Shown: positions 4,963 through 43,926 of the stretch, piece after piece
Layout of the letters: each line of letters begins with the position of its first letter
Position numbering within the stretch: the first letter of the stretch is position 1
Origin: Escherichia phage RobRod40
Length of the DNA: 47,574 nucleotides
Sequence record: OR896835.1
Direction: 5' to 3' (one strand)
Program-made: the position numbers and the translations under genes
The notes under the pieces: generated by a model
Database searches by the model: none
Told to the model about the DNA's origin: nothing
Seen by the model: only the letters and a program-made list of their open reading frames with translations

Positions 4963-4974
4963 GGAGTTATAAAC

Positions 4975-5496
4975 ATGGCAATTCGTTCCGTAGCACTGGC
5001 TGGTATGGTTTCTGATACCTCTCTCTATAACATCGACGGCGCTTGTGTTGTTGGTGGCGCAGCAGCAATTCCTGTTGGCACTGTCGTTGGTGTTACATCC
5101 GCTCAGCCTGTAGATGGTCACAAGGTTGTTGGCCTTCCCGCCGTAACTGGTACGCCAGTCAAACCTTATGGTGTTGTTGTTAAATCTCATTACGAGACCC
5201 CAGATGGTACGGCTCGCGTAAATGAAGCAGTTAACGTAATGACTCATGGTCGCATCTGGGTACGCACCACTCTAGCAGCTGCGCCAGTTTTTGGTAGCAA
5301 GGTTTTCGTAAACGCAAGTGGTGTTGTTGTTGCTGAAGCGGCTGGCACTACTTGGGAGACTGGTTTTACATTTGCTGGTGGTTATGCGTCTGCTTATGCT
5401 GGCGGCGCTAACCCAATCAAGCAAGGTGAAAGCTACGATGGTGCAATCGTTGAGGTTCAGCTGATTCAATCCGCTGACTCAGCTGTCGCAGCTTAA
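4975..5496 (+). CDS. putative capsid decoration / structural protein
   Basis: 173 aa, Gly/Val/Ala-rich; strong RBS TAAGGAG; followed by rho-independent terminator; position between scaffold and capsid. Confidence 0.45.
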   Translation: MAIRSVALAGMVSDTSLYNIDGACVVGGAAAIPVGTVVGVTSAQPVDGHKVVGLPAVTGTPVKPYGVVVKSHYETPDGTARVNEAVNVMTHGRIWVRTTLAAAPVFGSKVFVNASGVVVAEAAGTTWETGFTFAGGYASAYAGGANPIKQGESYDGAIVEVQLIQSADSAVAA

Positions 5497-5502
5497 TTAC
5501 AC

Positions 5503-5523
5503 GGCCCTTCGGGGCCTTTTTTA
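5503..5523 (+). terminator. rho-independent terminator
   Basis: GGCCC-ttcg-GGGCC hairpin then TTTTTT. Confidence 0.75.
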
Positions 5524-5534
5524 ATGGAGGCTTT

Positions 5535-6080
5535 ATGATAAAAGTATTTTCTGGTGACTTCGAGTTCGCGCATGAGGCTGATGCATTTCTTAATGATGCA
5601 ATTTCCTCAGGATTCAAATATCTAGTTAGATCTCTGAGCACATCACAAATGATTCAGGCCTATAGTCGCAGCGACACAACGCCAGGGAAAGGGGTTATAA
5701 GAAAGGACGGGGTGAGAGTTTTGGGTGTAGCCCTGTCTGACGACCCTAGATGCGGAGAATTGGTTGATGAATTTTCGGTTTTTAAGTCAGCGGAGTATGA
5801 GGAGTATACCCATGAGATTGATGGTGTATGGGTTAACTATATCCACAATGACTTCTTAGATAAATTAAATGATGGCTGGAGGACGGTTACAGACAACAGC
5901 GTATCTCCTTTAAGCTACTACTATCAGGTGTTGACGTGGTCATGGGAGTACAGCTACTATTACACAAGATCATCATCAACTTATGGTATTTGCTTTTTGG
6001 CTAGATTTGCAAATCATGATTCAACTAAAAAGTCTGGTTGGGCTTTAGTCAAGTACGAAGAAGTTGACTCTCCAGAGTAA
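5535..6080 (+). CDS. hypothetical protein (terminator-flanked, moron-like)
   Basis: 181-aa ORF, RBS GGAGG; flanked on both sides by strong terminators; Tyr/Ser-rich C-terminus. Confidence 0.55.
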   Translation: MIKVFSGDFEFAHEADAFLNDAISSGFKYLVRSLSTSQMIQAYSRSDTTPGKGVIRKDGVRVLGVALSDDPRCGELVDEFSVFKSAEYEEYTHEIDGVWVNYIHNDFLDKLNDGWRTVTDNSVSPLSYYYQVLTWSWEYSYYYTRSSSTYGICFLARFANHDSTKKSGWALVKYEEVDSPE

Positions 6081-6085
6081 ATTAA

Positions 6086-6109
6086 AGCCTCCTTCGGGAG
6101 GTTTTTTTA
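6086..6109 (+). terminator. rho-independent terminator
   Basis: CCTCC-ttcg-GGAGG hairpin then TTTTTTT. Confidence 0.75.
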
Positions 6110-6161
6110 TGCCTGTAATCTGTTAGACTTATTAAGTATATTAACCAATCAGGAGATTAAG

Positions 6162-7595
6162 ATGGCTAGTGAATTAAGAGCAGTGACTGCTGGTACTGCC
6201 CATGCCCTAAAGCAAAAAATCACCGAATACATAGCTGAAGGTTGGCAGCCTTATGGCAGGATCCTTAATGCTGGGGCGACAAGTGTTGGCATTATAATGG
6301 CGAAAGGTACTGAGGCAAACATTACTGATGTTGATGTTATTACCGCAGATTCAAGGGCTTCCTTAGTTTCTAAGATTAACTCATCCATAGAAAATGGATT
6401 TGAGATGTTCGGCGAGCAGGAAGTGAACGCAAGTAGATTTATCGCATTCATGACTAAAGGGTCTCAAGGTTCATCTGGTGGCGGTGGTGAACCTGGACCA
6501 ATTGGACCAAAGGGTGATAAGGGAGATAAGGGTGACAAGGGAGACGTTGGTGAGCGCGGACCCGCTGGCGTAGCTGGTTCTGCTGGCGCTACAGGCCCGA
6601 CAGGCCCTCAGGGTTTAACTGGACCTGCTGGCGAAAAAGGTGATACTGGAGAGCAAGGCCCAATTGGCCCTACTGGTCCCACTGGCCCAAAGGGTGATAC
6701 TGGCGCAACTGGCCCCGCCGGACCGCAAGGCCCAAGAGGATTGCAAGGTGAACAGGGGGTTCCGGGCGAGGTTGGACCGGCTGGCTTGACATTCCAGGGC
6801 GCATGGGATTCTGCCTCCACATATGTGAAGGATGACACTGTAGTTTATGATGGATCTACTTGGTTTGCTCCAGATGCTGTAGCCTCAGGTTTGGTTCCAG
6901 GTGTTGCTCCTGAGTGGATCCTTTTAGCTGCACAAGGCGCAAGGGGAGAGGATGGTCCGCAGGGTCCGGTTGGCCCTCAGGGTTTACAGGGTGCCACTGG
7001 CCCGGCAGGTCCTACTGGCGCTACTGGCGCTACAGGTCCGCAAGGTCCCAGAGGTATACAAGGTCAAACCGGCCCGGCAGGTCCAGCAGGTCCTCAGGGT
7101 GAGGCTGGTCCTCAGGGTATTCAGGGACCACAGGGTATCGCTGGACCTCAGGGATTAACTGGCCCTCAGGGTCCAAAGGGTGATAAAGGTGATGCTCCTT
7201 ACACATTGTTTAACTCGCAGAACGTTACATCAACATACATTGAAATCCCCATTCCGCAAGTAACCAACACTGTACTTAGGGTTAGGCTTTCAGGTGCCAA
7301 CTTTGAATATAGCGTTTTAAGTAAAGGTGGCGCTAATAGATATGTTGACTTTTACACATTCATCCCGTCATTAACCAGCTCAACGGGTAACATCTATACC
7401 GGAGGAACCACCTTAACACCAACTGGTAGTCTTTTTTTGGGTAATTCCCCTGTGGCTCTCGGGTTAAGGGAGTTGACAATAACACTTAAGGAATGGGGTG
7501 ACAGGACACTAACTACAATAAAGGCGATACATCACGGCAGATCAGGTGACACAACAAGACCCTTGCAGATAACTATGTTTAGTAATAAGTATTAA
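6162..7595 (+). CDS. collagen-like repeat fibre protein
   Basis: Two long Gly-X-Y repeat tracts interrupted by a [13 protein letters not shown] tail-fibre-like segment; non-collagenous N- and C-terminal domains. Confidence 0.8.
6513..6548 (+). repeat. tandem 9-bp coding repeats (GGTGATAAG-like x4) in collagen-like gene
   Basis: ggtgataag ggagataag ggtgacaag ggagacgtt encoding [11 protein letters not shown]. Confidence 0.7.
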
Positions 7596-11105: not shown

Positions 11106-11780
11106 TTGAATTGGAGGTGTATTATTGCCCATCTCAGCAATGGCACGCAGGTCTTCGTAGAAGGCTCTCGCGGAGCTGCAATTGACGTAACTGCAATTTC
11201 TAACTCAGTTACCCCTGTTTTAACTGTATCTGACGCATCTGGATTGGTTGTTGGTGATTACCTTCTTTTCACCTCTTCTGCCTCCACGCTTCTGGCTGAT
11301 AAGCAAGTTCGCGTAACTGCAATCACTGGTACGTCAGTAACTGTTGAAGGTATTGATACCTCTAGCACTACAAAGTTCCCAGCCGGTTTAACTGGTGAGG
11401 TTGTTAAAATCACCTCTTGGTTCGAAGTTCCGTGTGTTCAGGACGTATCTACTGATGGCGGCGAACAGCAGTTCGTTAACTTCCAGTGTTTGTCCGATGA
11501 CCGTGAACAGCAGATTCCGACTTATAAATCTGCCGTAACGAATACCTTCACCTTTGCTCACGAGTACACCAACCCGGTCTATCCGGTCCTGCGTAACTAC
11601 GATGAGTCAGGTCAGGTTGTCGCGATTCGCCTGTTCGTACCTCGAGCTAGCGAAATGCGTTTGCAGTCCGGCACTATCGCTTTCAATGACACCCCCACCA
11701 TTGGTGTTAACGAAATCGAAACGGTATCCATCGCAGTATCCATTCGTGGCCGCCTGTCCTCTGTGGCAGCTGAAGTTTAA
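11106..11780 (+). CDS. major tail (tube) protein
   Basis: ~220 aa; strong terminator immediately downstream; position before chaperone and tape measure; start uncertain (no in-frame ATG/GTG near GGAGG at 11113-11117). Confidence 0.6.
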   Translation: MNWRCIIAHLSNGTQVFVEGSRGAAIDVTAISNSVTPVLTVSDASGLVVGDYLLFTSSASTLLADKQVRVTAITGTSVTVEGIDTSSTTKFPAGLTGEVVKITSWFEVPCVQDVSTDGGEQQFVNFQCLSDDREQQIPTYKSAVTNTFTFAHEYTNPVYPVLRNYDESGQVVAIRLFVPRASEMRLQSGTIAFNDTPTIGVNEIETVSIAVSIRGRLSSVAAEV

Positions 11781-11787
11781 AACATAA

Positions 11788-11809
11788 ACCCTCTTCGGAG
11801 GGTTTTTTA
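11788..11809 (+). terminator. rho-independent terminator after major tail gene
   Basis: ACCCTC-ttcg-GAGGGT hairpin then TTTTTT. Confidence 0.8.
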
Positions 11810-11813
11810 TTGC

Positions 11814-11857
11814 ATAGCACTTTTTGCTAAAGCACTTATTCAACTTTGATGTATAGT
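11814..11857 (+). promoter_or_regulatory. conserved promoter-like module (ATAGCAC-ttt-TTGCTAAA, 22 bp, TATAGT)
   Basis: Directly after major-tail terminator; followed by TACTTCATCGAAACGA leader; precedes lipoprotein gene. Confidence 0.6.
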
Positions 11858-11890
11858 TACTTCATCGAAACGAAATGAGAGATTAAAGAA

Positions 11891-12277
11891 ATGAAAGCAA
11901 TCATCGCAATTATGGCAACACTGCTACTTGCTGGCTGTAACAGCGATAAGGTTAAGACACTTAATGTTGATCTGGCTTCAAATGAATGCAAGAACATCGT
12001 ATACAACGCGACGGTTAACAATGAGGCATTTACTAGGCTTTCATTCAAATACCCAGAACTTAAAGATTCCGTTATGTACGTGGCCCACATTGAGTGCACT
12101 AAATCTGTTAACAATTTTACCCGTGGTGTTGTAATTGAACACACCACAACATTGGCAAAGGTATCAAAGCCTAGTGACGCTTCAATCGCGATGGTTTATA
12201 CTAAGATCTATAGTTTAGAGGCTCTCGCTAGTATGGTTGGCGAGAAACTAGCTTACTCACGCGTTGTTATGAAATAA
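11891..12277 (+). CDS. predicted lipoprotein inserted in tail module
   Basis: N-terminal signal peptide with lipobox LLAGC; own promoter-like module upstream. Confidence 0.65.
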   Translation: MKAIIAIMATLLLAGCNSDKVKTLNVDLASNECKNIVYNATVNNEAFTRLSFKYPELKDSVMYVAHIECTKSVNNFTRGVVIEHTTTLAKVSKPSDASIAMVYTKIYSLEALASMVGEKLAYSRVVMK

Positions 12278-12295
12278 AATAGAGGATAAAACGAG

Positions 12296-12610
12296 ATGGC
12301 AAAGTTCAAACTTTCACTGGCGGCACTGCCAGACTTCAAGCTCCCAGTAAAATTTAAGCTGGCTAACGACCAGGATGTAGAGGTTGTTTTTACAGTTAAG
12401 CACAAGAAGACCTCTGAGCTTCAGGAGCTACTACAGAAAGAAGACCTGAGCACTAAAGAATTGATTATGGCAATCGCCTCTGATTGGGATCTGGAAGAAG
12501 AATTTAATGAAGAAAACGTCATTGAGTTTGCTGATTTATTCCCGTCATCCACAGTTGCGCTAACAACTGCTTACATGCAAGCATTGGCTGGGCAGCGAGT
12601 AAAAAACTAA
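12296..12610 (+). CDS. tail assembly chaperone (gpG-like)
   Basis: 104-aa acidic protein immediately upstream of tape measure; ends with slippery A_AAA_AAC before stop. Confidence 0.7.
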   Translation: MAKFKLSLAALPDFKLPVKFKLANDQDVEVVFTVKHKKTSELQELLQKEDLSTKELIMAIASDWDLEEEFNEENVIEFADLFPSSTVALTTAYMQALAGQRVKN

Positions 12611-16158: not shown

Positions 16159-16914
16159 ATGTTAAGTCCAAAGTTTGAAAATCAGTTGCAAGGCCTTTTC
16201 CCAGGCGAGATTGTAACTTTAATCCAGGTTGATGGGACCTCGTTTGGCTCTAACGTTTATTCGTTCCATAATGAGAACATTTCATACACGCCGGAAGAAA
16301 TCATGCTGGCCCAAATGAATGGCGAGCCACTACCAGAGAAGACAATCAAATTTCGCGGTGAAGAGTATGGACCTCGCCCATTCGGAATCTCTGGCATCAA
16401 CATGACCTCTGACGGTAAGGCCAACAAGGTTACGTTAACAGTATCAAACGTAGACCAGCGCATTAGTGCCTTGATTCGCACATATAATGGACTTGTTAAA
16501 GCAAAAGTAACTATCTGGATTACTACTCGGGATAACATCAATGAAGACGGAACCATTGCTGACGGGGACTATCGCCGATTCATTTACTTCATTGAACGAC
16601 CAAAGCAGGTTGATTATAAAACTGCATCATTTGAGCTAAGTAGCCCAATGGATATGGATGGCATTTATATCCCGGCGCGACTTGTTCAGTCTGTTTGTTA
16701 CTGGGCATCTCGTGGCTGGTATCGTAGCGGAAATGGATGCGACTACGCTGGCAATCGTTATTTTGACAAAGACGACAACCCGGCCAGTGACCCTTCTCTA
16801 GATTTCTGTGCGGGTACTGTTAACAGTTGCAAGATTAGATTCGGCGAGAATAATCAGCTTTCATTTGGTGGATGCGCAGCAGCAAGCCTTCAGGCCAAAG
16901 CAAATCAGAGCTAA
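16159..16914 (+). CDS. minor tail protein (gpL-like)
   Basis: ATG at 16159 after GGAG; Cys-rich C-terminus; gene order M-L-K-I-J. Confidence 0.65.
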   Translation: MLSPKFENQLQGLFPGEIVTLIQVDGTSFGSNVYSFHNENISYTPEEIMLAQMNGEPLPEKTIKFRGEEYGPRPFGISGINMTSDGKANKVTLTVSNVDQRISALIRTYNGLVKAKVTIWITTRDNINEDGTIADGDYRRFIYFIERPKQVDYKTASFELSSPMDMDGIYIPARLVQSVCYWASRGWYRSGNGCDYAGNRYFDKDDNPASDPSLDFCAGTVNSCKIRFGENNQLSFGGCAAASLQAKANQS

Positions 16915-18324: not shown

Positions 18325-21300
18325 ATGGCTGAAGAGATTAAGATTTATGGTGCTAAAGGCGGTAGCCAGAAGCAGCATCAACCAGTTGAGCAGGAAGATA
18401 ACCTAATTTCGGTTAACAAGGTTAAGGTATTGCTTGCTGTTGCTGATGGTGAGGTTGACTCTAATTTCTCCATGAAGGATTTATACCTTGCTGATGTGCC
18501 TGTTCAGAACCAGGATAACAGCTATAACTATGAGGGTGTTAGAGCAGAATTTCGCGCTGGGACTCAGTATCAGGATTACATTGCTGGACTTGATGGTGCT
18601 AACTCAGAGATTCAGGCATCTCGTGAAATCACGAATGACACGCCTTACATTATTGCGGTTAATAACAGTCAGCTTTCGGCAATTCGGGTTAAACTTTTTT
18701 GGCCTAGATTGGTTAAGCAAGAAAGCAACGGCGACCTGAATGGTACAACTTGCGAGTACGCAATTGACTTGTCCGTTAATGGCGGAGTATATCAGGAATA
18801 CACTCGCGGAGTTGCAAACGGTAAGACAACTACTGGTTACGACCGCAGCATTCGTGTAAACCTTCCGGCTGAATTTGATAGTGCACTGGTTCGGATCCGA
18901 AAGATTACAGCGGATTCAACGAGTAGCACACTGGTTAATGGAATGCAGATTACAACCTATCAGGAAGTAATCGACGCTAAATTCCGATATCCGCTTACAG
19001 CACTTGTTTATGTTGAGTTCGGCTCTGACCTTTTCCCTAACGGGATCCCGACAATATCAATCAAGAAGAGATGGAAGCTGATTCAAGTTCCAACGAACTA
19101 TAATCCGGAGACAAGAACCTACAGCGGAACATGGAATGGCCTGTTCAAGATGGCATGGTCAAACAACCCTGCCTGGGTTCTTTATGACTTAGTCACAAAC
19201 CGACGTTATGGTCTTGACCAGCGAGAGCTAGGTGTAGAGATTGATAAGTGGGGATTGTATGAAGCCGCGCAATTCTGTGACCAGATGGTTCCAGATGGCA
19301 AGGGTGGCTTAGAGCCGAGATACCTTTGCGATATGGTTGTGCAAAACAAGGTTGAAGCTTACACGCTAATTCGCGATATCTGCTCAATCTTCCGCGGACT
19401 GACTTTCTATGATGGCGAAAAGATTGGTATCGTGGTTGATAAGCCTCGCAATCCATCATACATCTTTACGAATGATAACGTTGTAAATGGGTTATTTAGC
19501 CGCACATTTGCCAGTGATAAGAGTCTTTACACTACCGCAAACGTCCAGTTTGATGATGTAGAGAACAACTATCAACAAGATGTAGAGCCGGTATTTGAAT
19601 TAGAGGCAACTCGTCGTTTTGGATTTAACCCTGTAGATTTGACTGCGATTGGCTGCACTCGCAGAAGTGAAGCAAACAGGCGCGGCAGGTGGCTCCTAAA
19701 AACCAACCTGAGAAGCGAAACTATCAGCTTCACTACCGGGCTGGAAGGCATGATTCCGATGATTGGCGAGGTCATTGCAGTTAATGACGCGGCATGGTCT
19801 AGCAACTATCAGTTAAACCTTTCCGGTCGTATTGAATCAGTTCAGGGATTGCAGGTTTTTACCCCGTTTAAAGTTGACGCAGCGCCGGGTGACAGAATTC
19901 TTCTGAACAAGCCAGACGGAAGTCCAGAGGCAAGAACTATTGCCAGCGTTTCGGAAGATGGTAGAACAATCAACCTTAACACCGCTTTCAGTTTTGTTGC
20001 TCAGCCTGATACTGTGTTCGCAATCGATAAGGACAATCTGGCGCTTCAGCAATATGTTGTGACCGGGATTCAAAAAGCGGATTCAGACGGCTCGGACTCG
20101 TTCCAGTATACGATTACAGCAGTAGAGTATGACCCGAACAAGTATGACGAGATTGACTACGGCGTTAACATTGTTGATCGTCCGACTTCAATTGTAGAGC
20201 CTGATAGATTGTCGCCACCAGAAAACCTTACCGTATCAAGTTACAGTAAAATTGTTCAGGGCTTGTCAGTTGAGACGATGGTCATTGGATGGGATAAGGC
20301 TCCATACGCTAAAACCTACAATGTTCAGTGGAGAAAAGAGAATGGCAACTGGATTAACGTACCCAGAACAGCTAGCACAGAAGTTGATATTGAGGGTATT
20401 TACGCAGGAATCTATGACGTTAGGGTTCGCAGCGTATCAGATACTGAAAACGTTTCTGCATGGTCTGACATTGTAACAGTATCGCTAACTGGCAAGATTG
20501 GTCGCCCATCGGCACCTACGGTTATCACGGCATCAACAGATGAGGTATTTGGCATCCGTGTTAAGTGGGGTTTCCCTGAAGGCTCTGGTGACACTGCTTA
20601 CACTGAACTTCAACAGGTTCCTGATAATGGTGATGGTACTTACAATCCTGATAACGCAAGTTTGCTTACATTACTTCCGTATCCGGCTTATGAATACTGG
20701 CACACGCCGATTCAGCCGGGTAAGGTTATCTGGTATCGCGCAAGGATTATAGATAGGATTGGCAATACATCTGATTGGACGGATTTCGTCAGAGGAATGA
20801 GTACTGATGATGCTCAGAAGATCGCTGAATATATCAAGGTTGATATCGAGCAGTCTGAAGGCTTTAAATACCTACAGCAGAATGCAATTGAGAAAAACCA
20901 GGACATTCAGAATCAAGCTGAGGCAATTATCGAGAACGCATTGGCGAATGACTCAGATGTAAGGCTTCAGTCTGTTAAGAATGGGAAATTTACAGCTTCA
21001 ATAACCGAAAGTCTTCAGTTGATTGCCGATGAGCAGCAAGCCAGGGTAACTCAGATATCTCAGCTTGAAGCGGATTTTGACGGAAGGGTTAATTCTTTAA
21101 ACACTGAACTAAGAGAGGTAATAACAACTGGTGATAGCGCTCTATCAAGATCAATTGATGATTTAAGGGTTGAGATTGACGAGAACATATCATCACAAAT
21201 AACAAACATAAACACAGCTTTAGTAACAGAAGCAGAAGCAAGAGCAACGGCTGACACGGCTTTGTCTGCAAGGCTTGGTCAGAACGAGGCAGCGCTAAAC

Positions 21301-24884: not shown

Positions 24885-24928
24885 ATAGCACGAATTGCTA
24901 AAGACAAGATCAAAAGGTGGGGTATGAT
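24885..24928 (+). promoter_or_regulatory. conserved promoter-like module (ATAGCAC-gaa-TTGCTAAA, 22 bp, TATGAT)
   Basis: Palindrome GGGGTAtgatTACCCC spans the -10-like hexamer; precedes erf. Confidence 0.6.
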
Positions 24929-29960: not shown

Positions 29961-30004
29961 ATTATGGCACATCCAATTACTTACTCTTTAGCTTTTCGTG
30001 CTGC
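29961..30004 (-). promoter_or_regulatory. conserved promoter-like module, variant (CAGCAC-gaa-AAGCTAAA, 22 bp, CATAAT) on minus strand
   Basis: Overlaps 3' end of regulator gene; palindrome GGATGTgccataatcgGTACATCC spans -10; precedes HNH paralog 3. Confidence 0.5.
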
Positions 30005-30454
30005 TTCGTTAGCGGCCTTAATCTTTCGCCATGATCGACACTCTGGCTTGGTGGCTAGTTCAGCTTCAGTAACCACACGCAGCATGTGACGCTTTTTGCA
30101 CCGAAGTGTCAGCGGTTTTCCGTTACCATCGAATTGCAGGTCTGGTCGGCAGAATGTTGCGCGAAAGCCTTCTCCATTTCGCTTGTAGTAGTTGTGCGAT
30201 AGCTGGGCACCACGCGCAGAAATCATACCGCGCTTAAACCATTCTTCTACAGCCTGCGGTGTTACCTTTAGCTGCTTTGCGATATTCGCCTTTGTGCCGA
30301 AGAAATCAAGAACTATCTCTAGTCGAGCACGTAATCCAGCCCTTACCTCATCTTTCAAAACGTAGTAGCCTGAAGGTCGTTTGCGTTGCTTCTTATCTTG
30401 TGTGCGGACCGTTCCGTTATTACCGTTAGTCGTTCGCTTGTCAACTGAATTCAT
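29981..30454 (-). CDS. putative HTH DNA-binding regulator
   Basis: Candidate helix-turn-helix TKANIAKQLKVTPQAVEEWFKRG; basic N- and C-termini; GAGGTG RBS; divergent from helicase operon. Confidence 0.5.
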   Translation of the reverse strand: MNSVDKRTTNGNNGTVRTQDKKQRKRPSGYYVLKDEVRAGLRARLEIVLDFFGTKANIAKQLKVTPQAVEEWFKRGMISARGAQLSHNYYKRNGEGFRATFCRPDLQFDGNGKPLTLRCKKRHMLRVVTEAELATKPECRSWRKIKAANEAARKAKE

Positions 30455-30466
30455 TTAATCACCTCA

Positions 30467-30510
30467 ATAGCATTTTTTGTTAAAAGTCATTCTGATTTGA
30501 TGTTAGTATT
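30467..30510 (+). promoter_or_regulatory. promoter-like module variant (ATAGCAT-ttt-TTGTTAAA) in divergent region
   Basis: Between minus-strand regulator and + strand helicase; -10-like TAGTAT offset by 1 bp from canonical 22-bp spacing. Confidence 0.4.
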
Positions 30511-30555
30511 GTACTCAATTAAACGCTACAAGACAATTTTTATAGGAATTTAGAT

Positions 30556-32550
30556 ATGTTGCCTATCGAGAAGCTGGTTGCCAACTTTGATAAAGAAAGA
30601 ATTAAACAGATTCAGAAAGATTACCAGTTTGGCGAGATAACCCCTTACGAGTTCCAGTGCGTTACATTTGATGCAATTGGAAAGGCTATTGGCAAGTATG
30701 AGGCACCATTTATCGCAGACCTTTCCGTATCGGCTGGTAAGACAATCATTCTCGCCATGATTGGAAAGCGCATGGAGCAATTAGGATTGCCTTATATGGT
30801 TCTTTCTCGCCAGTCAGAGATAATAAGCCAGAACTCAGAAGAACTTCGAAACTTCGGAATCCGCAACAGCGTCTATTGCGCTGGCCTTAACGTTAAATCA
30901 GTTTATTACCCAACCATAGTTGCCAGTGAGGGCACGGCAGCTAACGGCTTGTTTAAGGGGCTTGGTGACTATGTCCCTGCCGTTATCGCTATCGATGAAT
31001 GTCACATGCTTGATGCTATGGATATCGTGGAAGCCGAAGAGAATGAAGAAACATTTGAGCAAATGAGCACAAAAAAAGGAGAGGTGGTCTTTAAAGATGG
31101 CGTTAATACCGGACTTCTTGGCACGGGCCGCGCACAGTACACGCTGATAATTACCGAGATGAAACGCCGTTGTCGTGAGAAGTATGGTCGTGAGCTTCGT
31201 ATATTCGGCCTTACTGGTAGCCCTTATCGAAACAATGACCATATTGTCGTTAGCAATCCAAACATCCGTGGATTCTGGCGCAAAACAGTTATTCAGGTGC
31301 CAACAAATTACCTTGTTGATTTGGGGTTCGTGGTACCAACAGTTTACGGCGAGGTTGGTGATTTAGGTTATGACCTTAGTGAATTTGCGCCAGACGGTAG
31401 CGATGGTGTGAAAGACTTCAGTAAGAAAGAAATGGATGCGATGCAGGAAAAGATTCATCAAAACCAGTCCATGACGCAAAAGATTATGCAGTTCGCAGCA
31501 AAGTTTATGGAGTCTCGCAACGCTGCACTTGTGACATGCTCTGGAAAGCGCCACTGCGAGGAAGCGGCGGCAGCGCTTCCTGAGGGTGCAACCTGGGCTA
31601 TAGTAACTGACTCAACTGGTGAGAAAAAGCGTCGTGAGATTCTTTCTGACGCAGCTGAGGGTAAGTATAAATTCATATTTCAGATTGGCTGCCTAACAAC
31701 CGGAGTTAACGTCCCGCCGTGGGATACGTCAATAATTCTTCGCAAGGTTGGTAGCATCACGTTACTGATTCAGCTTTTGGGGCGAGGAATGCGAATCCTT
31801 AAGAAGAAGCATAAGGAAATGGGAATGGTTAAGGATGATCACGTGGTGCTGGACTTCGCTGGTACTCTTGATGACATGGCGGAATTGTACTTTGACCCAA
31901 TCATAGAGGAAGTGCAGGACCAGAAATTTAAGTCTTCACGCAAAGGCGGCGATGAGCCAAGAATATGTCCAGCCTGTAGTTACGAGAACTCTCCTTTTGC
32001 TCGTCGTTGCAATAACGTAATTGATGGGAAGCGTTGTGAGCATTTTTTTACATTTCGCTTATGTGAAGATATAGAGGACCCGCAGACAAAAGTTACTATT
32101 AAGAAAGGTTGTGGTGAGAAGAATGATATTGCCGCTAAAAACTGCCGGTGCTGCGGAGAAATGCTTATTGACCCTAACGCAAAGTTGTCTGGAAAGATGT
32201 ATAGACAAGGGGATTGGTTGAGAGTTTACGGATTCAGTATTGGGTTAACTAAAAACCAAACCGGAATCGTTGCTCGCTATGAAATCATGGCTCACAGCGG
32301 AGACAGGTTTGTTGCTTACGAAACTTTCTTTCCAGAGAGTGACCATCGAGTTTGCTCTGTGAAGTGGAAGGCGTTTTGCCAAACTCATATCGCTAACAAA
32401 ACAGAAGCATTTCGCATCGGAAGACTTCGAAACGCTAAGATGATTATGACCAATGCAAGCCAATTCCGCGAGCCTATGCGAGTGACGCACAGAAAAAACC
32501 AGAAAGGTCAGGATATTATCGCAAATAAATCTTTTACTATGGAGGATTGA
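30556..32550 (+). CDS. putative SF2 DNA helicase (DExH-type)
   Basis: Walker A-like SVSAGKT and Walker B DECH; C-terminal Cys clusters suggesting zinc ribbons. Confidence 0.65.
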   Translation: MLPIEKLVANFDKERIKQIQKDYQFGEITPYEFQCVTFDAIGKAIGKYEAPFIADLSVSAGKTIILAMIGKRMEQLGLPYMVLSRQSEIISQNSEELRNFGIRNSVYCAGLNVKSVYYPTIVASEGTAANGLFKGLGDYVPAVIAIDECHMLDAMDIVEAEENEETFEQMSTKKGEVVFKDGVNTGLLGTGRAQYTLIITEMKRRCREKYGRELRIFGLTGSPYRNNDHIVVSNPNIRGFWRKTVIQVPTNYLVDLGFVVPTVYGEVGDLGYDLSEFAPDGSDGVKDFSKKEMDAMQEKIHQNQSMTQKIMQFAAKFMESRNAALVTCSGKRHCEEAAAALPEGATWAIVTDSTGEKKRREILSDAAEGKYKFIFQIGCLTTGVNVPPWDTSIILRKVGSITLLIQLLGRGMRILKKKHKEMGMVKDDHVVLDFAGTLDDMAELYFDPIIEEVQDQKFKSSRKGGDEPRICPACSYENSPFARRCNNVIDGKRCEHFFTFRLCEDIEDPQTKVTIKKGCGEKNDIAAKNCRCCGEMLIDPNAKLSGKMYRQGDWLRVYGFSIGLTKNQTGIVARYEIMAHSGDRFVAYETFFPESDHRVCSVKWKAFCQTHIANKTEAFRIGRLRNAKMIMTNASQFREPMRVTHRKNQKGQDIIANKSFTMED

Positions 32551-32551
32551 T

Positions 32552-32971
32552 ATGAAAATTACAGATAAGGTTGATTACATTGAGTTTTACCCAGGTCCTG
32601 TTAAGTCATGCCCTAAAGAGGATGACGAACAAATCTTTTGCTCTGATTGGGTTAAGTATAACTACCCAGAGATGGTATTTTTCCACTGCGTGAATGAGGG
32701 TAAGAAAACCATTGGACAAGCAAGAAAGGACCAGGCTAAAGGATTGCTTAAAGGGGTTTCGGACTGCTTATTCCTGATACCTGAATCTCTACGAGGCAAA
32801 TACCCTTTTGGAGCCATAGAGCTAAAGAGGGCCGGGAAGACCCAAGCTAGCCCAGTCAGTGGCGAGCAGAAGTCCTTCCTTAAAAGCGTGAGAGAGTCAG
32901 GTGGTTTTGCCGCAGTGGCCTACGGTCGTGAAGGTTTTCTGGCAGCATTCAAAGAAATGATTTCAAAATAG
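32552..32971 (+). CDS. VRR-NUC domain nuclease
   Basis: FHCVNEG, GVSDCLFL, GAIELKRAGK and Q..FL...G pattern matching the VRR-NUC PD-(D/E)XK layout. Confidence 0.7.
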   Translation: MKITDKVDYIEFYPGPVKSCPKEDDEQIFCSDWVKYNYPEMVFFHCVNEGKKTIGQARKDQAKGLLKGVSDCLFLIPESLRGKYPFGAIELKRAGKTQASPVSGEQKSFLKSVRESGGFAAVAYGREGFLAAFKEMISK

Positions 32972-33011
32972 CACGAATTGCTAAATACGAATCGGTGAGG
33001 TGGTGTATTAT
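32968..33011 (+). promoter_or_regulatory. conserved promoter-like module (ATAGCAC-gaa-TTGCTAAA, 22 bp, TATTAT)
   Basis: Palindrome GAGGTGgtgtattatCACCTC spans -10; leader CATCGAAACGAAAC. Confidence 0.6.
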
Positions 33012-33863: not shown

Positions 33864-33907
33864 ATAGCACTTTTTGTTAAAACTAAAATCCACGGATGGA
33901 TTATATT
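33864..33907 (+). promoter_or_regulatory. conserved promoter-like module (ATAGCAC-ttt-TTGTTAAA, 22 bp, TATATT)
   Basis: Spacer palindrome ATCCAcggATGGAT; leader CATCAACAACG. Confidence 0.6.
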
Positions 33908-34842: not shown

Positions 34843-35973
34843 ATGGCAACTGCAAAAATCACCAACGAACAATTGCGCGAAGAGCTTGCAAATGGGATGA
34901 CCAACAAAGCAATCGCAGAGAAGTATGGAATGAACATTCGCAACGTTGAATTACGTCGTAGTAAATTGGCTAAGAGTGGAGAATTGCACGGAAACCCTGG
35001 CATCAAGAAGTTAGTTCCAGATGGGTATATGGTTAAGGGAACTTCAACAATGATTGATGCGGATGGTAACGAAAAGATTCGCTGGGTCAAAACTTCTATA
35101 GATAATGAGCGCCTTGAGATTTTGATGGATCAGGCTCGTGAGGCATTCTGTTCTGATTTACCAAAAGCAGATGCGGTAATCCACTCAGGCAATGAGATTA
35201 ACTCTGAATTAATGACTCTTTACCCGATTTTCGATATCCATATTGGTATGATGGCTCATCGTCATGAATCTGGTGAGAATTATGACACGAACGCGGCAGA
35301 GAAATTAATGGGATCATATTTTGACCATGCAATTTCTGTATCACCTGCGTCAGAGAAAGCCGTGGTTTTAGTTGGTGGTGACTTCCTTCACTCTGACGGA
35401 TTGGAGGCTGTAACCCCAGCGAGCGGGCACTGCCTTGATCAGGATAGTCGGTATGCTAAGTTAGTTTATGTTGCGATTCGCTCAATTCGTGGTGCAGTAG
35501 AGAAGATGCTTAAGAAGCATAAGAATGTAGAGATTCAGATTATAGAGGGAAATCATGACCAAAGTGGTATGATTTGGCTTCGCGCGGCAATGGCTGCATT
35601 TTATGAAAATGAGAGTCGGGTGTTTGTTGATACCAGTCCGGCAATCATGCACAAAACACGATTTGGCTCAACACTACTTGGTTACACGCACGGTCACACG
35701 ATGAAGAAGGCTGAGGGTCGACTCGCAGCAATGGCGACAGACTACCGCAAAGACTTTGGTGAATGTGAGTTTGTTTACTGCCATTCCGGGCATTTTCACC
35801 ACGCAACTGTCACGGAGTGCACGCTTGGCATTGATGAAGTTCACCCAGCGCTGGCTAGTAAGGATGCGTATGCGGCCCGTGGAGGTTGGCGCTCATATCG
35901 TCAAGCGGCTGCAATAATCTATCACAAGGAGTTTGGCGAGGTTGGTCGCCACATTTATCGCCCAGGTATGTAA
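34843..35973 (+). CDS. HTH domain + metallophosphoesterase fusion protein
   Basis: N-terminal HTH-like MTNKAIAEKYGMNIRNVELRRSKL; calcineurin-like motifs GDFLHSD, GNHD, GHTHGH. Confidence 0.6.
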   Translation: MATAKITNEQLREELANGMTNKAIAEKYGMNIRNVELRRSKLAKSGELHGNPGIKKLVPDGYMVKGTSTMIDADGNEKIRWVKTSIDNERLEILMDQAREAFCSDLPKADAVIHSGNEINSELMTLYPIFDIHIGMMAHRHESGENYDTNAAEKLMGSYFDHAISVSPASEKAVVLVGGDFLHSDGLEAVTPASGHCLDQDSRYAKLVYVAIRSIRGAVEKMLKKHKNVEIQIIEGNHDQSGMIWLRAAMAAFYENESRVFVDTSPAIMHKTRFGSTLLGYTHGHTMKKAEGRLAAMATDYRKDFGECEFVYCHSGHFHHATVTECTLGIDEVHPALASKDAYAARGGWRSYRQAAAIIYHKEFGEVGRHIYRPGM

Positions 35974-36017
35974 ATAGCACTTTTTGCCTAACCCATGCCG
36001 TAGAAATGCGGCATAAT
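35974..36017 (+). promoter_or_regulatory. conserved promoter-like module (ATAGCAC-ttt-TTGCCTAA, 22 bp, CATAAT)
   Basis: Spacer palindrome TGCCGtagaaatGCGGCA; leader CATCGAAACGAG. Confidence 0.6.
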
Positions 36018-36058: not shown

Positions 36059-36235
36059 ATGACTAAAATGATTTATTGCACCAAGAACAATTCAAAGACG
36101 CTGCCATTTACAGTTAACCAGCCGTACAACGCAGAGTACCAGGGCGACGGATATTACAAAATTTATGGCGACGATATGACGCACATCTTAGCGCCGATTG
36201 ATGGTTCGTTAGTTGAATTTATTATCGCCGAGTAG
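36059..36235 (+). CDS. small hypothetical protein (58 aa)
   Basis: Below track cutoff; preceded by promoter-like module and RBS AACGAGGA; followed by strong terminator. Confidence 0.4.
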   Translation: MTKMIYCTKNNSKTLPFTVNQPYNAEYQGDGYYKIYGDDMTHILAPIDGSLVEFIIAE

Positions 36236-36261: not shown

Positions 36262-36288
36262 GGGGGGCCTTTTGGCTCCCCTTTTTTA
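36262..36288 (+). terminator. rho-independent terminator upstream of lysis cassette
   Basis: 8-bp stem GGGGGGCC/GGCTCCCC with tttt loop then TTTTTT. Confidence 0.75.
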
Positions 36289-36365
36289 TGCTTCTTTTCC
36301 AAGCAGGGCTAATGTATCATTCTTTTACTAACTTAAACATTGACAAATAGATAAAGGTGGGTCAC

Positions 36366-39830: not shown

Positions 39831-39874
39831 AATATACAGGAAAAGCCCCGAAGGGCTTTAGCAATTAGTGCTAT
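39831..39874 (-). promoter_or_regulatory. conserved promoter-like module on minus strand (ATAGCAC-taa-TTGCTAAA, 22 bp, TATATT)
   Basis: Terminator hairpin sits inside the 22-bp spacer; leader CATCTCATCGAAACGAAG. Confidence 0.6.
39840..39858 (-). terminator. terminator-like hairpin embedded in a promoter-module spacer (minus strand)
   Basis: Minus-strand AGCCC-ttcg-GGGCT then TTTT, lying between the TTGCTAAA motif and the -10-like hexamer. Confidence 0.5.
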
Positions 39875-41128: not shown

Positions 41129-41304
41129 TTTTGCAACTCCGCTTCGTAGTATTCGTATGAATTGAACTTATCGATTTCGTTCATCTTCTCGCAAACCTGC
41201 TCTGCCATCTGCTCACTTAGGCATACGCAGTGGACGGCTGTGTCGTAATCCGGATCACGCGGTTCAGAAATCACGACGTAGCAATACATTTTTACAGTGC
41301 TCAT
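41125..41304 (-). CDS. small hypothetical protein (59 aa)
   Basis: First ORF of minus-strand operon; RBS GGAGAAAA; ~40 bp downstream of promoter-like module. Confidence 0.35.
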   Translation of the reverse strand: MSTVKMYCYVVISEPRDPDYDTAVHCVCLSEQMAEQVCEKMNEIDKFNSYEYYEAELQK

Positions 41305-41345
41305 TTATTTTCTCCAGTTCTCTTCACTCATTTCGATGAGCTAAC

Positions 41346-41389
41346 TATATCCTCCCCGACTGATAATGTCTTTAACAAAAAGTGCTATT
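41346..41389 (-). promoter_or_regulatory. promoter-like module on minus strand (ATAGCAC-ttt-TTGTTAAA, ~22-23 bp, TATAGT-like)
   Basis: Leader TAGCTCATCGAAATGAG; adjacent to inverted-repeat operator array; precedes minus-strand operon. Confidence 0.5.
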
Positions 41390-41407
41390 CGTTGGATTTA
41401 CGTATTG

Positions 41408-41470
41408 TTGCAGATATTGCAATGATTCACATGATTATTGCACATAAAGCAATATTGCTTCAGATGCAAT
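41408..41470. promoter_or_regulatory. inverted-repeat operator-like array
   Basis: TTGCA-N5-TGCAA (41408-41422) and two abutting ATTGC-N7-GCAAT sites (41437-41453, 41454-41470) just upstream of minus-strand promoter module. Confidence 0.4.
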
Positions 41471-41630
41471 GATGTTTTTGATTGTTGCGAAAATTGAAAT
41501 GAAGTGGTGAGTGAGTGAATGAAAGATGGATGGACTACCATACAAGTTGATTTTTATTCTGGCTGAGCCATTTTCATGCTTACGCGTAAACGAAATAACT
41601 AGCTGTATGCCATTTGCGTCCGCGGGAAAT

Positions 41631-41660
41631 CGTATACGCATGATACGCAGCGATACGCAC
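41631..41660. repeat. iteron-like direct repeats (3 x ATACGC at ~10-bp period)
   Basis: cgtATACGCa / tgATACGCag / cgATACGCac. Confidence 0.5.
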
Positions 41661-41728
41661 TAGTTACATTAAAACATCCTTATATAACAACCATTTATCT
41701 ATATTATTATTATTATTATATATATATG
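41661..41728. repeat. AT-rich module CTAGTTACATTAAAAC...(TAT)6(AT)n, copy 2
   Basis: Homologous to 23345-23405; (TAT)6 at 41702-41719. Confidence 0.6.
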
Positions 41729-41947
41729 TATGCTATGTAAGCCATGTCATATGGTGAAGTTGATATATTTCTATGATTTATTCCTACACATGTAGGAATG
41801 AGACTACTTTGTAGGAATGAAAAGGCATATATAGGCATGAATCTCCAAAAAGTTGGCATACATGGCACACGCAGCCATTTACACCAGTCATGTCGAGCAC
41901 TATTCCCAAATAAACGTAGGCAATCGCCATTGATACACAAATTAACG

Positions 41948-41976
41948 TTGACTTACAGGTTAACCATCAATATAAT
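41948..41976 (+). promoter_or_regulatory. near-consensus sigma70-type promoter (TTGACT-17-TATAAT)
   Basis: Canonical hexamers and spacing upstream of 42015 operon; followed by ATCATCGAAACAACAAACGA leader. Confidence 0.6.
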
Positions 41977-42014
41977 GACAATCATCGAAACAACAAACGA
42001 AAAGAGGATATACA

Positions 42015-42539
42015 ATGAGCGTTAAAACATTGGGTGCAGTTATTCGATATATGATTGACCAGGCGATTGAGTCTGAAGATAAGTCATTCACAGTACGGCT
42101 TCGTGATATCGCAAGAGCGACAACGGGAATAAACCCAAAATCATTAAGTGATGATGAGATAGTTGAGTTCGAAAAGGTCAAGGGCCTTAAAAGTTCATAC
42201 ATTTATAATACAGCCTCCAGGGTTCAGCGATTGCAGGAACTAAACCTCAGGGCAAAATATGAGATGGTATTCGTCAATGAAGATGGCGAAATACAAAGTG
42301 GCTCTTCTGTTGTCGACGGGCTTGGTTACAGAGCAATGCGAATCTTCCTTGTTGAGGGTGCTGTGAAGCCAGTTTGCCGAGCAAGGGCCGACTCAGAGAA
42401 CGAGGCTATGGCGGTTGAAAGATTCAAGTCCAGGCTTCTTAAGCTTTCACCAAGCGTTGCCGGCCTGGAAGGTGATGAACTTAAGGGCGCTGTGGCAATG
42501 ATTAACGCCTATCAGGAAATGATTAAGGAGACCAAATAA
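42015..42539 (+). CDS. hypothetical protein (first gene of + operon beside iteron region)
   Basis: 174-aa ORF immediately downstream of near-consensus sigma70 promoter and AT-rich iteron module. Confidence 0.55.
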   Translation: MSVKTLGAVIRYMIDQAIESEDKSFTVRLRDIARATTGINPKSLSDDEIVEFEKVKGLKSSYIYNTASRVQRLQELNLRAKYEMVFVNEDGEIQSGSSVVDGLGYRAMRIFLVEGAVKPVCRARADSENEAMAVERFKSRLLKLSPSVAGLEGDELKGAVAMINAYQEMIKETK

Positions 42540-43142: not shown

Positions 43143-43886
43143 ATGAACAGATATGAGCCACGCATCTATCAGACACTATCAGGCTATTTTTCAGCCGCAA
43201 TGAGACGCCACTACAATGGAACGTACATCACCTACGAATCGCATAAGCAGGAAATTGAGTATCTACAGGCGCGTTTAAAGGCGTTAGAATCGAAGCAAAA
43301 AGACTCGATTTCAATCTCTTCAATTATTGCCGAGCACGTAGATGATGCGATTCGTAAATCCATTGGCGAGGCTGTTCACCAGGCAATTGATGAGATGTTC
43401 AAGGCTGAGTACAAATACAATGGCGATCCGTGCCATAGCGCAGTTGACTCAATCCTGGATGAGCTGGCTGTCGCCCCTGGTAAAACAGTTAAGGATGACA
43501 CCTATAGCGTCGCCGATGGATTGACGAAGAACGGTAAATTCACTTTCGGTAGTAATTTCGGTGAAGGAAAGGAGTTTACAATGCCAGTAGGCGAAACCGA
43601 ATCAGAGCATGGTCGCAAGGTGGCTGTTTGTTACTACGTTGCAGGCAATGCAAACGCATTCATCAAAGGCTGTGAGTATGAGTATGAAGTTGATGAATGT
43701 GAACCTGGGTGTGAGCCTCGAATCATTCATATCGTTCAAGATGCCTTCGTTTCTGATTTAAAATGTGAGCAACGATGGGATGCAAGAAAAGTCGGTGAAT
43801 TCAGGGATGCAAACGGCAAACTTGGTGACGCATACGTCATCGTTAAGCCTGGCGGCGGAGTTGTAGCTCAATTTTATATCAAATAG
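43143..43886 (+). CDS. hypothetical protein
   Basis: 247-aa ORF with promoter-like module upstream; Cys pairs near C-terminus. Confidence 0.55.
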   Translation: MNRYEPRIYQTLSGYFSAAMRRHYNGTYITYESHKQEIEYLQARLKALESKQKDSISISSIIAEHVDDAIRKSIGEAVHQAIDEMFKAEYKYNGDPCHSAVDSILDELAVAPGKTVKDDTYSVADGLTKNGKFTFGSNFGEGKEFTMPVGETESEHGRKVAVCYYVAGNANAFIKGCEYEYEVDECEPGCEPRIIHIVQDAFVSDLKCEQRWDARKVGEFRDANGKLGDAYVIVKPGGGVVAQFYIK

Positions 43887-43926
43887 CACGTTTTGTTAAA
43901 AGGGGATTCATCCTGACCGGTATAAT
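43883..43926 (+). promoter_or_regulatory. conserved promoter-like module (ATAGCAC-gtt-TTGTTAAA, 22 bp, TATAAT)
   Basis: Palindrome GGGGATT...AATCCCC spans -10; stop TAG embedded. Confidence 0.6.

Follow-up and report, generated by a model that had tools for sequence, protein, structure and literature searches.

The window analysed here is the whole 47,574-nucleotide (nt) stretch of Escherichia phage RobRod40 (OR896835.1), a T1-like phage of the Drexlerviridae. On its plus strand, positions 34843-35973 hold a complete open reading frame (ORF) with an ATG start and an AGGA Shine-Dalgarno sequence 9 nt 5' of it, encoding a protein of 376 amino acids (aa) in which an N-terminal helix-turn-helix (HTH) is joined to a calcineurin-like metallophosphoesterase. 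The deposited RobRod40 protein named 'DNA repair exonuclease' has the identical sequence (100%), and phrog_704, a family of the same name, gave an end-to-end match (E=2.1e-150, 502 bits) in which residues 4-376 align with positions 2-388 of the 390-position profile. It is a phrog_704 member with no point of difference, and the name of that family is a similarity-based label. The homologue in JulesPiccard (Drexlerviridae, Braunvirinae), bas03_0050, is annotated as 'hypothetical protein' and is 97% identical to the RobRod40 protein, and the T1 homologue, ST16, occupies the same genomic slot, with the Dam region on one side and the lysis cassette on the other.

Homologues were present in 2,015 of the 50,697 deposited phage records, with hosts that included Escherichia (559 records), Klebsiella (468), Salmonella (373) and Vibrio (254) as well as Rhodobacter, Ruegeria, Rhizobium, Pseudomonas and others. 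An exhaustive HMMER search returned 4,672 clusters at 50% identity with E<=1e-3, of which 1,059 had E<=1e-30. The labels deposited for these homologues conflict with one another and include hypothetical, phosphoesterase, phosphatase, DNA binding protein, transcriptional regulator, oxidoreductase, wHTH protein and exonuclease. The records MG065688.1 (Campylobacter phage A110b) and PP134917.1 (Pseudomonas phage PsgS01F) hold a copy of the gene with about 89% nucleotide identity to that of a coliphage; contamination by T1-like coliphages or a wrongly assigned host is the probable reason.

A metallophosphoesterase core with an intact active site

Searches of Pfam, the PDB and NCBIfam with the single sequence gave sub-threshold matches only, and family-level profiles were required. 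An AlphaFold2 model was built on a 122-sequence alignment, and conservation was taken from alignments of 148 and 122 representatives that were 31-58% identical to the query. The model, with a mean predicted local distance difference test (pLDDT) score of 94.1, contained three N-terminal helices, a low-confidence linker at about residues 46-60, a beta-hairpin and helix at residues 62-103 and an alpha/beta core at residues 120-376.

Sequence and model together identified residues 120-376 (35200-35970; all parts of the gene lie on the plus strand) as a calcineurin-like metallophosphoesterase catalytic core. It has the alpha/beta sandwich fold of the superfamily and all five of the superfamily motifs in order (D-x-H, G-D, G-N-H-[DE], H and G-H-x-H), with ligands that were invariant or at least 95% conserved in the 148 relatives. 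Motif I is D131-I-H133 (35233-35241), in which both metal ligands are invariant in the family. Motif II is G-G179-D180-F-L-H183-S-D185 (35374-35397), where H183, three residues past the Asp, is 97% conserved, and it is followed by a conserved motif III, G236-N237-H238-D239 (35548-35559). Motif IV, T-H283-G284-H (THGH, aa 282-285; 35686-35697), contains an invariant H283, and motif V, G316-H317-F-H319-H320 (35788-35802), an invariant H319 and an H317 that is at least 95% conserved. Residues D131, H133, D180, H283 and H319 were thus invariant in relatives, joined in the 122-member alignment by G179, N237, H238 and G316.

Further positions conserved at 90% or above are specific to the family (G75, W81, E142, H183, T191, D199, D201, R203, R259 and D341). 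The family-invariant G75 and W81 lie before the core, in the segment formed by the beta-hairpin (aa 62-86) and the helix (aa 88-103; together 35026-35151). A conserved family-specific loop, V-T191-P-x-S-G-H-x-L198-D199-x-D201-x-R203 (35410-35451), is a candidate substrate-binding element.

The RobRod40 protein scored 18.7 bits against Pfam Metallophos (gathering score 27) and 14.1 bits against Metallophos_2 (21.5), and only 30 of the 122 relatives matched PF00149 at E<0.01; the family is a divergent clade missed by current Pfam models. Foldseek searches with the core returned a mixture of GpdQ, DP1, Rv0805 and Mre11 at E of about 1e-7 and 10-14% identity. By sequence, phrog_284 'exonuclease' matched residues 89-363 (E=1e-11), and the sole NCBIfam match was the PdeM endonuclease TIGR04123 (E=0.0014, 18 bits against a cut-off of 150). 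The family profile gave two marginal matches to the core, one to T. maritima Mre11/SbcD (E=0.24) and the other to 'Nuclease MPE' (MPE, metallophosphoesterase); the family is without a close solved relative by sequence. Taken with the model, these searches suggest that the core forms a distinct clade whose nearest relatives are, by a modest margin, DNA nucleases.

An N-terminal helix-turn-helix on a flexible linker

Residues 8-45 (34864-34977) were recognised as an HTH of the LuxR/NarL/sigma-region-4 type by family hidden Markov model (HMM) matches, an N-terminal profile, the structural model and Foldseek. The predicted helices span residues 8-16, 21-28 and 32-45 in the full-length model, with which a separate model of residues 1-62 agreed, and the recognition helix is likely N-I-R-N-V-E-L-R-R-S-K-L-A-K. 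Scanned alone, the RobRod40 protein was sub-threshold for Pfam GerE (E=0.05, 13.6 bits against a cut-off of 23.5). Among 122 relatives scanned singly, Pfam matches were obtained to HTH_1 (24), HTH_8 (22), HTH_50 (14), Sigma70_r4_2 (11, best E=1.5e-9) and GerE (5). When a profile of 32 N-termini was compared with solved structures, it matched RhlR (2.8e-6), DesR (4.5e-6), NarL (1.1e-4) and GerE (1.5e-4) as well as the DNA-binding domains of VpsT, FixJ and DosR, with E-values between 3e-6 and 6e-4 overall. Foldseek with the model of residues 1-62 placed DosR, a LiaR-DNA complex, VpsT, EsrB, VraR, EvgA, NarL, GerE and TraR at the top, with probabilities of 0.9-0.99 and up to 34% identity; the E-values were weak, as expected for 45 residues. 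By profile and by fold, the N-terminus is, throughout the family, an HTH homologous to LuxR/NarL DNA-binding domains. The fourth (dimerisation) helix of NarL and GerE was not predicted, and the residues following helix 32-45 form a disordered linker.

This flexible linker (aa 46-61; 34978-35025) is where pLDDT falls to about 50-65. In many distant relatives it contains a semi-conserved motif, G-[YWF]-SP-[ED]-HDM-x-H-x-VP-[DE]-G-[FY], of which the RobRod40 copy (SGELHGNPGIKKLVPDGY) is degenerate; the conserved form could serve for docking or interaction.

Within the protein, conservation is lowest in the HTH module. The RobRod40 and ESCO41 proteins were 52% identical in the first 50 alignment columns and 96% identical past the linker, and the corresponding DNA was mosaic: 34843-35030 in RobRod40 stands against 43251-43440 in ESCO41, and the DNA match starts at about nt 190 of the gene, where the linker ends and the two domains meet. 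The HTH module is exchangeable: it recombines separately from the core, with the break falling precisely between the two domains.

An earlier note, made from the letters of the window alone, had proposed an HTH-like region fused to a calcineurin-like phosphoesterase, and both halves of that proposal hold on the family HMMs, the N-terminal profile, the model and the conserved motifs. Two of the strings it quoted, GDFLHSD (aa 179-185, 35377-35397) and GNHD (aa 236-239), are in the protein. The third, 'GHTHGH', is absent, the real string being LGYTHGHT (GYTHGH), and motifs I (DIH) and V (GHFHH) had been overlooked. The domain search that it suggested recovered the HTH at the family level, while the RobRod40 protein alone stayed below threshold for both Pfam GerE and Metallophos. 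Its reservation that the N-terminus might prove not to be an HTH is answered by the profile matches and the predicted fold, and 'DNA-binding phosphatase or nuclease' aptly describes a protein whose DNA binding is predicted from sequence and model.

Genomic neighbourhood

Upstream of the gene, an ORF at 30556-32550 lies in the slot of the JulesPiccard DNA helicase, followed by an ORF matching phrog_824 and, weakly, an endonuclease PHROG (32552-32971), and then by several small ORFs. The gene appears to be the last of a unit starting at a promoter with the repeated motif described below, at 33864, and ends the rightward block in RobRod40. A scan for canonical sigma-70 promoters around the gene found 5 sites against 5.2 expected in shuffled sequence, and because this is the shuffled-sequence level, no dedicated promoter is assignable to it. 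Downstream, a 58-aa ORF on the plus strand (36059-36235) matched DUF7244 (Pfam E=5e-29; phrog_4788) and was followed by a terminator-like hairpin at 36262-36281. In T1-like phages this small ORF is kept in the interval from the HTH-phosphoesterase gene to the holin, and it has a motif promoter and a terminator to itself. ORFs at 36357, 36582 and 37043 occupy the slots of the JulesPiccard holin, endolysin and spanin.

The same layout was found in T1, ESCO41 and KLPN1, usually with Dam upstream. In annotated T1-like relatives the order is helicase, Dam methyltransferase, small ORFs, the gene and then lysis genes, with a VRR-NUC gene as well in ESCO41. KLPN1 (Drexlerviridae, Webervirus) and K1ind2 (Guernseyvirinae, Kagunavirus) have the gene directly followed by a HAD_PNKP 3'-phosphatase (Pfam HAD_PNKP E=7.7e-18) and then a P-loop kinase (phrog_139, deoxynucleoside monophosphate (dNMP) kinase, E=3.8e-48). 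The pair lies at 41254-42323 in KLPN1 and 11381-12420 (minus strand) in K1ind2. It is found away from the gene in ESCO41 (3989-5273) and in T1 (4948-6534), where an HNH endonuclease gene splits it, and is absent from RobRod40. Elsewhere, the gene stood near MazG and an HD phosphohydrolase in a Rhizobium phage and near ribonucleotide reductase and DHFR in a Roseobacter phage. PAE2, a lambdoid Pseudomonas phage, has it where lambda has Q/NinI, as the last gene of a nin-like region that the lysis genes follow. Judged from the predicted functions of these neighbours, the surroundings of the gene appear to be those of DNA or nucleotide metabolism.

We also clustered the ORFs around 75 IMG/VR homologues, found from a 10-sequence alignment. 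The HAD gene was at position +1 and the kinase at +2 in eight of these loci, and no neighbour family occurred in more than 14 of the 75; the recurrent families were lysis-, tail- or nucleotide-metabolism-like and showed only the synteny of lineages. No Rad50/SbcC-like partner was found among the 75 loci, nor was one annotated beside the gene in JulesPiccard, KLPN1, ESCO41 or T1. A shared downstream partner was also rejected, the ORFs of about 190 aa that follow the gene in PAE2 and JL1 being unrelated to the KLPN1/K1ind2 kinase. The protein works alone or with host factors.

A putative promoter-upstream element of fixed geometry

With up to 3 mismatches allowed, the motif ATAGCAC-N3-TTGCTAAA matched the window 20 times, where 1.95 matches were expected; in 100 shuffles this number was never reached. 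Clear copies of ATAGCAC-N3-TTGNTAAA (n=18) lie, for example, at 2109-2126, 11814-11831, 24885-24902, 32968-32985 and 33864-33881, with further ones at 35974-35991, 39857-39874 (minus strand), 43883-43900 and 45521-45538. Every clear copy was co-oriented with the gene downstream of it. In 14 of the 18 there were exactly 22 nt from TTGNTA to a hexamer matching TATAAT in at least 5 of 6 positions, and this -10 was followed by a conserved leader (CATCGAAACGA), a Shine-Dalgarno sequence and the start codon, which lay a median of 74 nt from the start of the motif. Because its spacing to the -10 is 22 nt, TTGNTA is not a canonical -35. The earlier note had called the motif palindromic, which is true in part: it contains a dyad, TAGCA-N5-TGCTA, centred near -42, and as a whole it is directional and strictly co-oriented with the downstream gene. 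These regularities suggest a fixed-geometry, directional and non-canonical promoter upstream element centred near -42.

The element has been described before as a 21-nt direct repeat of phage TLS, aaATAGCACnnnTTGnTAAAA, also present in T1, Rtp and Rogue1, for which the roles of stoperator, enhancer or UP element were left as options (PMC11447400); among the literature found, this is its only description. RobRod40 resembles TLS in the consensus, in co-orientation with genes and in a position about 74-76 nt 5' of start codons. What goes beyond the TLS description is the placement exactly 22 nt upstream of a near-consensus -10. The TLS promoter search used TTGACA-N15-19-TATAAT and reported almost no promoters (PMC11447400), and because only N15-19 spacers were searched, a 22-nt geometry would have escaped it. 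The HTH-phosphoesterase is not discussed in that paper (PMC11447400).

One copy (ATAGCACTTTTTGCCTAA; 35974-35991, plus strand) starts at the base after the stop codon of the HTH-phosphoesterase gene and has a CATAAT -10 hexamer 22 nt downstream; on this arrangement, the two would drive the DUF7244 ORF at 36059-36235. Small G+C-rich hairpins often lie within the 22-nt spacer, as at 35996-36015 (ATGCCG-TAGAAATG-CGGCAT), 39840-39856 (minus strand), 1590-1605 and 33885-33900. Equivalent hairpins are annotated as rho-independent terminators in the T1 record, for example directly after ST16, and on that account a terminator and the next promoter appear to be interleaved. Independently of the promoter motif, two 8-mer pairs were over-represented in RobRod40, CCCTGAGG/CCTCAGGG (9 observed, 0.8 expected) and ACTGGCGC/GCGCCAGT (12 observed, 1.8 expected).

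Proposed function of the HTH-phosphoesterase

We propose, with moderate confidence, that the gene product is a DNA-tethered, stand-alone Mre11/PdeM-like nuclease that serves phage DNA or nucleotide metabolism. The HTH (aa 8-45) would hold the protein on duplex DNA, with a specificity that varies with phage lineage, and the flexible linker of about 15 residues would join it to the catalytically intact binuclear metallophosphoesterase (aa 120-376). So tethered, the core could cleave phosphodiester bonds in nearby DNA, as Mre11/SbcD, PolD-DP1 and PdeM ('Nuclease MPE') do. Unlike these, it has neither a Rad50/SbcC partner nor a capping domain. Its role in the phage might be to process DNA ends or intermediates in replication and recombination, or to break down host DNA and thereby feed nucleotide salvage.

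Several points weigh against this proposal. Similarity to every characterised nuclease was below significance in both sequence and family-profile searches, and neither an Mre11 capping domain nor a Rad50/SbcC partner was found. An enzyme that hydrolyses nucleotides would be no less at home among the nucleotide-metabolism neighbours, and a regulator, too, would fit the place that the gene takes immediately 5' of lysis or late genes in several phages unrelated to one another, or the Q/NinI slot in PAE2. In the literature we found no biochemical or genetic data for any family member, no functional study of the family, and no account of a nuclease-like phosphoesterase that stands alone and bears a tethered LuxR-type HTH.

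The principal alternative, which we consider possible and clearly less probable, is that the core is a nucleotide or cyclic-nucleotide phosphohydrolase that remodels pools or destroys a nucleotide signal, possibly a defence messenger, with the HTH used for localisation or autoregulation. The neighbours in other phages, among them a dNMP-kinase-like protein, a HAD phosphatase, MazG, an HD hydrolase and ribonucleotide reductase, would suit such an enzyme, and a calcineurin-like enzyme acting with a HAD partner on deoxynucleoside triphosphate (dNTP) pools provides a precedent (bioRxiv 10.64898/2026.01.15.699771). RobRod40 itself, however, is without the HAD and kinase genes, and no PADLOC defence model matched the protein. 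The top structural links and the weak sequence links are moreover to DNA nucleases, including the GDFLH shared with Nuclease MPE, and a flexibly tethered DNA-binding module is hard to explain for an enzyme of soluble metabolites.

The gene order in KLPN1 and K1ind2 bears on a further alternative. In bacterial Pnkp, a calcineurin-type phosphoesterase domain serves end healing, and the order metallophosphoesterase, HAD_PNKP phosphatase, P-loop kinase, common to these members of two phage families and to the eight IMG/VR loci, could be read as a split Pnkp. The protein would then be an end-healing enzyme, a 2',3'-cyclic phosphodiesterase or 3'-phosphatase, that mends RNA or DNA ends, for example after attack by an anticodon nuclease. 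We regard this as unlikely: no ligase was seen beside the trio in KLPN1 or K1ind2, T1 and ESCO41 have the HAD and kinase genes at a different place and RobRod40 has neither, the kinase matches dNMP kinases (phrog_139) and not polynucleotide kinases, and the HTH suggests duplex DNA as the target and not tRNA.

The HTH as a candidate reader of the element

The earlier note had offered the protein as a regulator that reads the genome-wide motif, so that the HTH would be a promoter-specific transcription factor for ATAGCAC-N3-TTGCTAAA and the phosphoesterase an accessory. The idea has some appeal: HTHs of the LuxR/sigma-region-4 class normally recognise promoter DNA, the binding partner of the element is left open in the TLS paper (PMC11447400), and an element near -42, at a fixed 22 nt from the -10 and unusable as a normal -35, suggests a bound factor. 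One copy of the motif abuts the stop codon of the gene. Within the Drexlerviridae, the recognition helices share [NH]-I-R-x-V-E, at which phages that have no motif differ; this is compatible with the idea and is not evidence for it.

The distribution of the motif argues the other way. Motif copies numbered 19 in RobRod40, 23 in T1, 16 in KLPN1 and 19 in ESCO41, and none were found in K1ind2, JL1, PAE2 or pYD21-A, all four of which encode the protein. An alignable HTH is clearly kept in K1ind2, JL1 and PAE2, and the N-terminus of pYD21-A aligns poorly. Protein and motif thus occurred together in all four Drexlerviridae genomes examined and the protein without the motif in four phages from outside that family; the motif is confined to the Drexlerviridae, and the protein family, with its 2,015 phage records, is far wider.

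The HTH module also varies where the motif does not. The motif consensus was identical in RobRod40, T1, KLPN1 and ESCO41, which represent four subfamilies; their HTH modules kept the [NH]-I-R-x-V-E core of the recognition helix and were otherwise only 49-62% identical over the module as a whole, and between RobRod40 and ESCO41 the exchange of the HTH module (52% identity, against 96% elsewhere) left the consensus unchanged. Covariation between HTH and motif within the Drexlerviridae did not discriminate between the readings, since both are conserved there. Promoters with the motif stand before operons of the early, middle and late classes, including the block that holds the gene itself, and because the gene lies downstream of motif promoters, an obligatory activator made by the phage would face a bootstrapping problem. 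The invariance of the catalytic residues implies strong selection on the enzyme; with the nuclease-like core, it makes an enzyme a likelier reading than a dedicated transcription factor.

A second protein has the phyletic range of the motif. A Cro-like HTH regulator (29981-30454, minus strand; phrog_2856 E=3e-83, Pfam P22_Cro sub-threshold) was found in 824 phage records, all of them enterobacterial genomes of about 44-53 kb, and because this range matches that of the motif, it is the better phyletic candidate for the reader. Its gene diverges from the motif copy at 30467-30484, in the intergenic region 30455-30555. The N-terminal stretch of the regulator, DKRTxNGNNGTxRxxDKKxRKR, is highly conserved in T1, KLPN1, ESCO41 and RobRod40.

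While no single point is decisive, the balance of evidence is against a dedicated reader role for the HTH-phosphoesterase, and the regulator reading of the earlier note, which we now judge quite improbable, is unsupported. A broader version, in which the HTH-phosphoesterase is the phage factor for the element, its sigma-region-4-like HTH replaces -35 recognition and couples the nuclease or phosphoesterase to promoters, and the HTHs of other lineages read other elements, seems to us slightly less probable still. De novo word enrichment in the phages that have no motif yielded no transferable pairing of reader and motif: PAE2 and pYD21-A gave nothing striking, and the enriched word of K1ind2 was intragenic. 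Dhillonvirus JL1 has a promoter-proximal repeat of its own, ATTGGTTGC, with 15 copies in 23 kb (for example at 2528-2540, 4072-4096, 16339-16381, 16746-16784 and 19799-19829) and a sequence unrelated to the Drexlerviridae element; its copies, many of them in pairs, overlap hexamers that resemble a -35 or a -10.

Least probable of all is a NinI-like Ser/Thr/Tyr protein phosphatase acting on DNA-associated host proteins, for although the superfamily is common to lambda phosphatase and the PAE2 gene is the last of the nin-like region, with the lysis genes next, the PPP signatures GDxHG, GDxVDRG and GNHE are absent from the protein, which has DIHIG, GDFLHSD and GNHD, and Vibrio phage pYD21-A encodes a separate NinI-like phosphatase besides its HTH-phosphoesterase.

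Significance and comparison with known systems

It is already known that the family, catalogued as phrog_704, is present in T1, and the likely activity is of a familiar type. The family is widespread and inconsistently labelled: about 2,000 of the deposited phage genomes carry it, the classic phage T1 among them, and its members form 4,672 clusters at 50% identity. Recognising in it a LuxR-type HTH tethered to an intact nuclease-like metallophosphoesterase without a Rad50-type partner improves the annotation and offers a concrete model that can be tested. Were the protein indeed a DNA-tethered, stand-alone Mre11/PdeM-like nuclease, it would represent a new architectural solution for targeting such nucleases. 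For the biology of T1, the published repeat can be viewed as a putative fixed-geometry promoter element, now with two named candidate readers, the HTH-phosphoesterase and the Cro-like regulator.

Among characterised enzymes, Mre11/SbcD and PolD DP1 are only 12-17% identical to the core, and the profile comparison (E=0.24) gave no significant family match. Mre11/SbcD has a C-terminal capping domain, which the RobRod40 protein lacks because its chain ends at residue 376, within the last beta-strands of the core. Mre11 and DP1 work with a Rad50/SbcC or polymerase partner, whereas none was found near the phage gene in the loci examined; conversely, the N-terminal HTH, the linker and the beta-hairpin of the RobRod40 protein were not found in Mre11/SbcD or DP1. 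PdeM, or 'Nuclease MPE' (Pseudomonas putida, 6nvo), is closer in kind, being a small stand-alone metallophosphoesterase DNA nuclease whose GDFLH motif II and RGNHD motif III region align with those of the phage protein. PdeM (TIGR04123) belongs to a ligase/Lhr-associated operon, whereas no ligase or Lhr helicase gene adjoins the RobRod40 gene.

The N-terminal module invites a different comparison. It is related to sigma-70 region 4 through the 11 phage relatives that match Sigma70_r4_2, and its predicted fold is like that of the LuxR, FixJ, NarL and GerE HTHs, with 28-34% identity to DosR and LiaR and a core that superposes on DosR, LiaR and NarL. The LuxR/NarL HTHs are C-terminal, have four helices and are fused to a receiver or ligand-binding domain, whereas that of RobRod40 is N-terminal, has three predicted helices and is fused to an enzyme.

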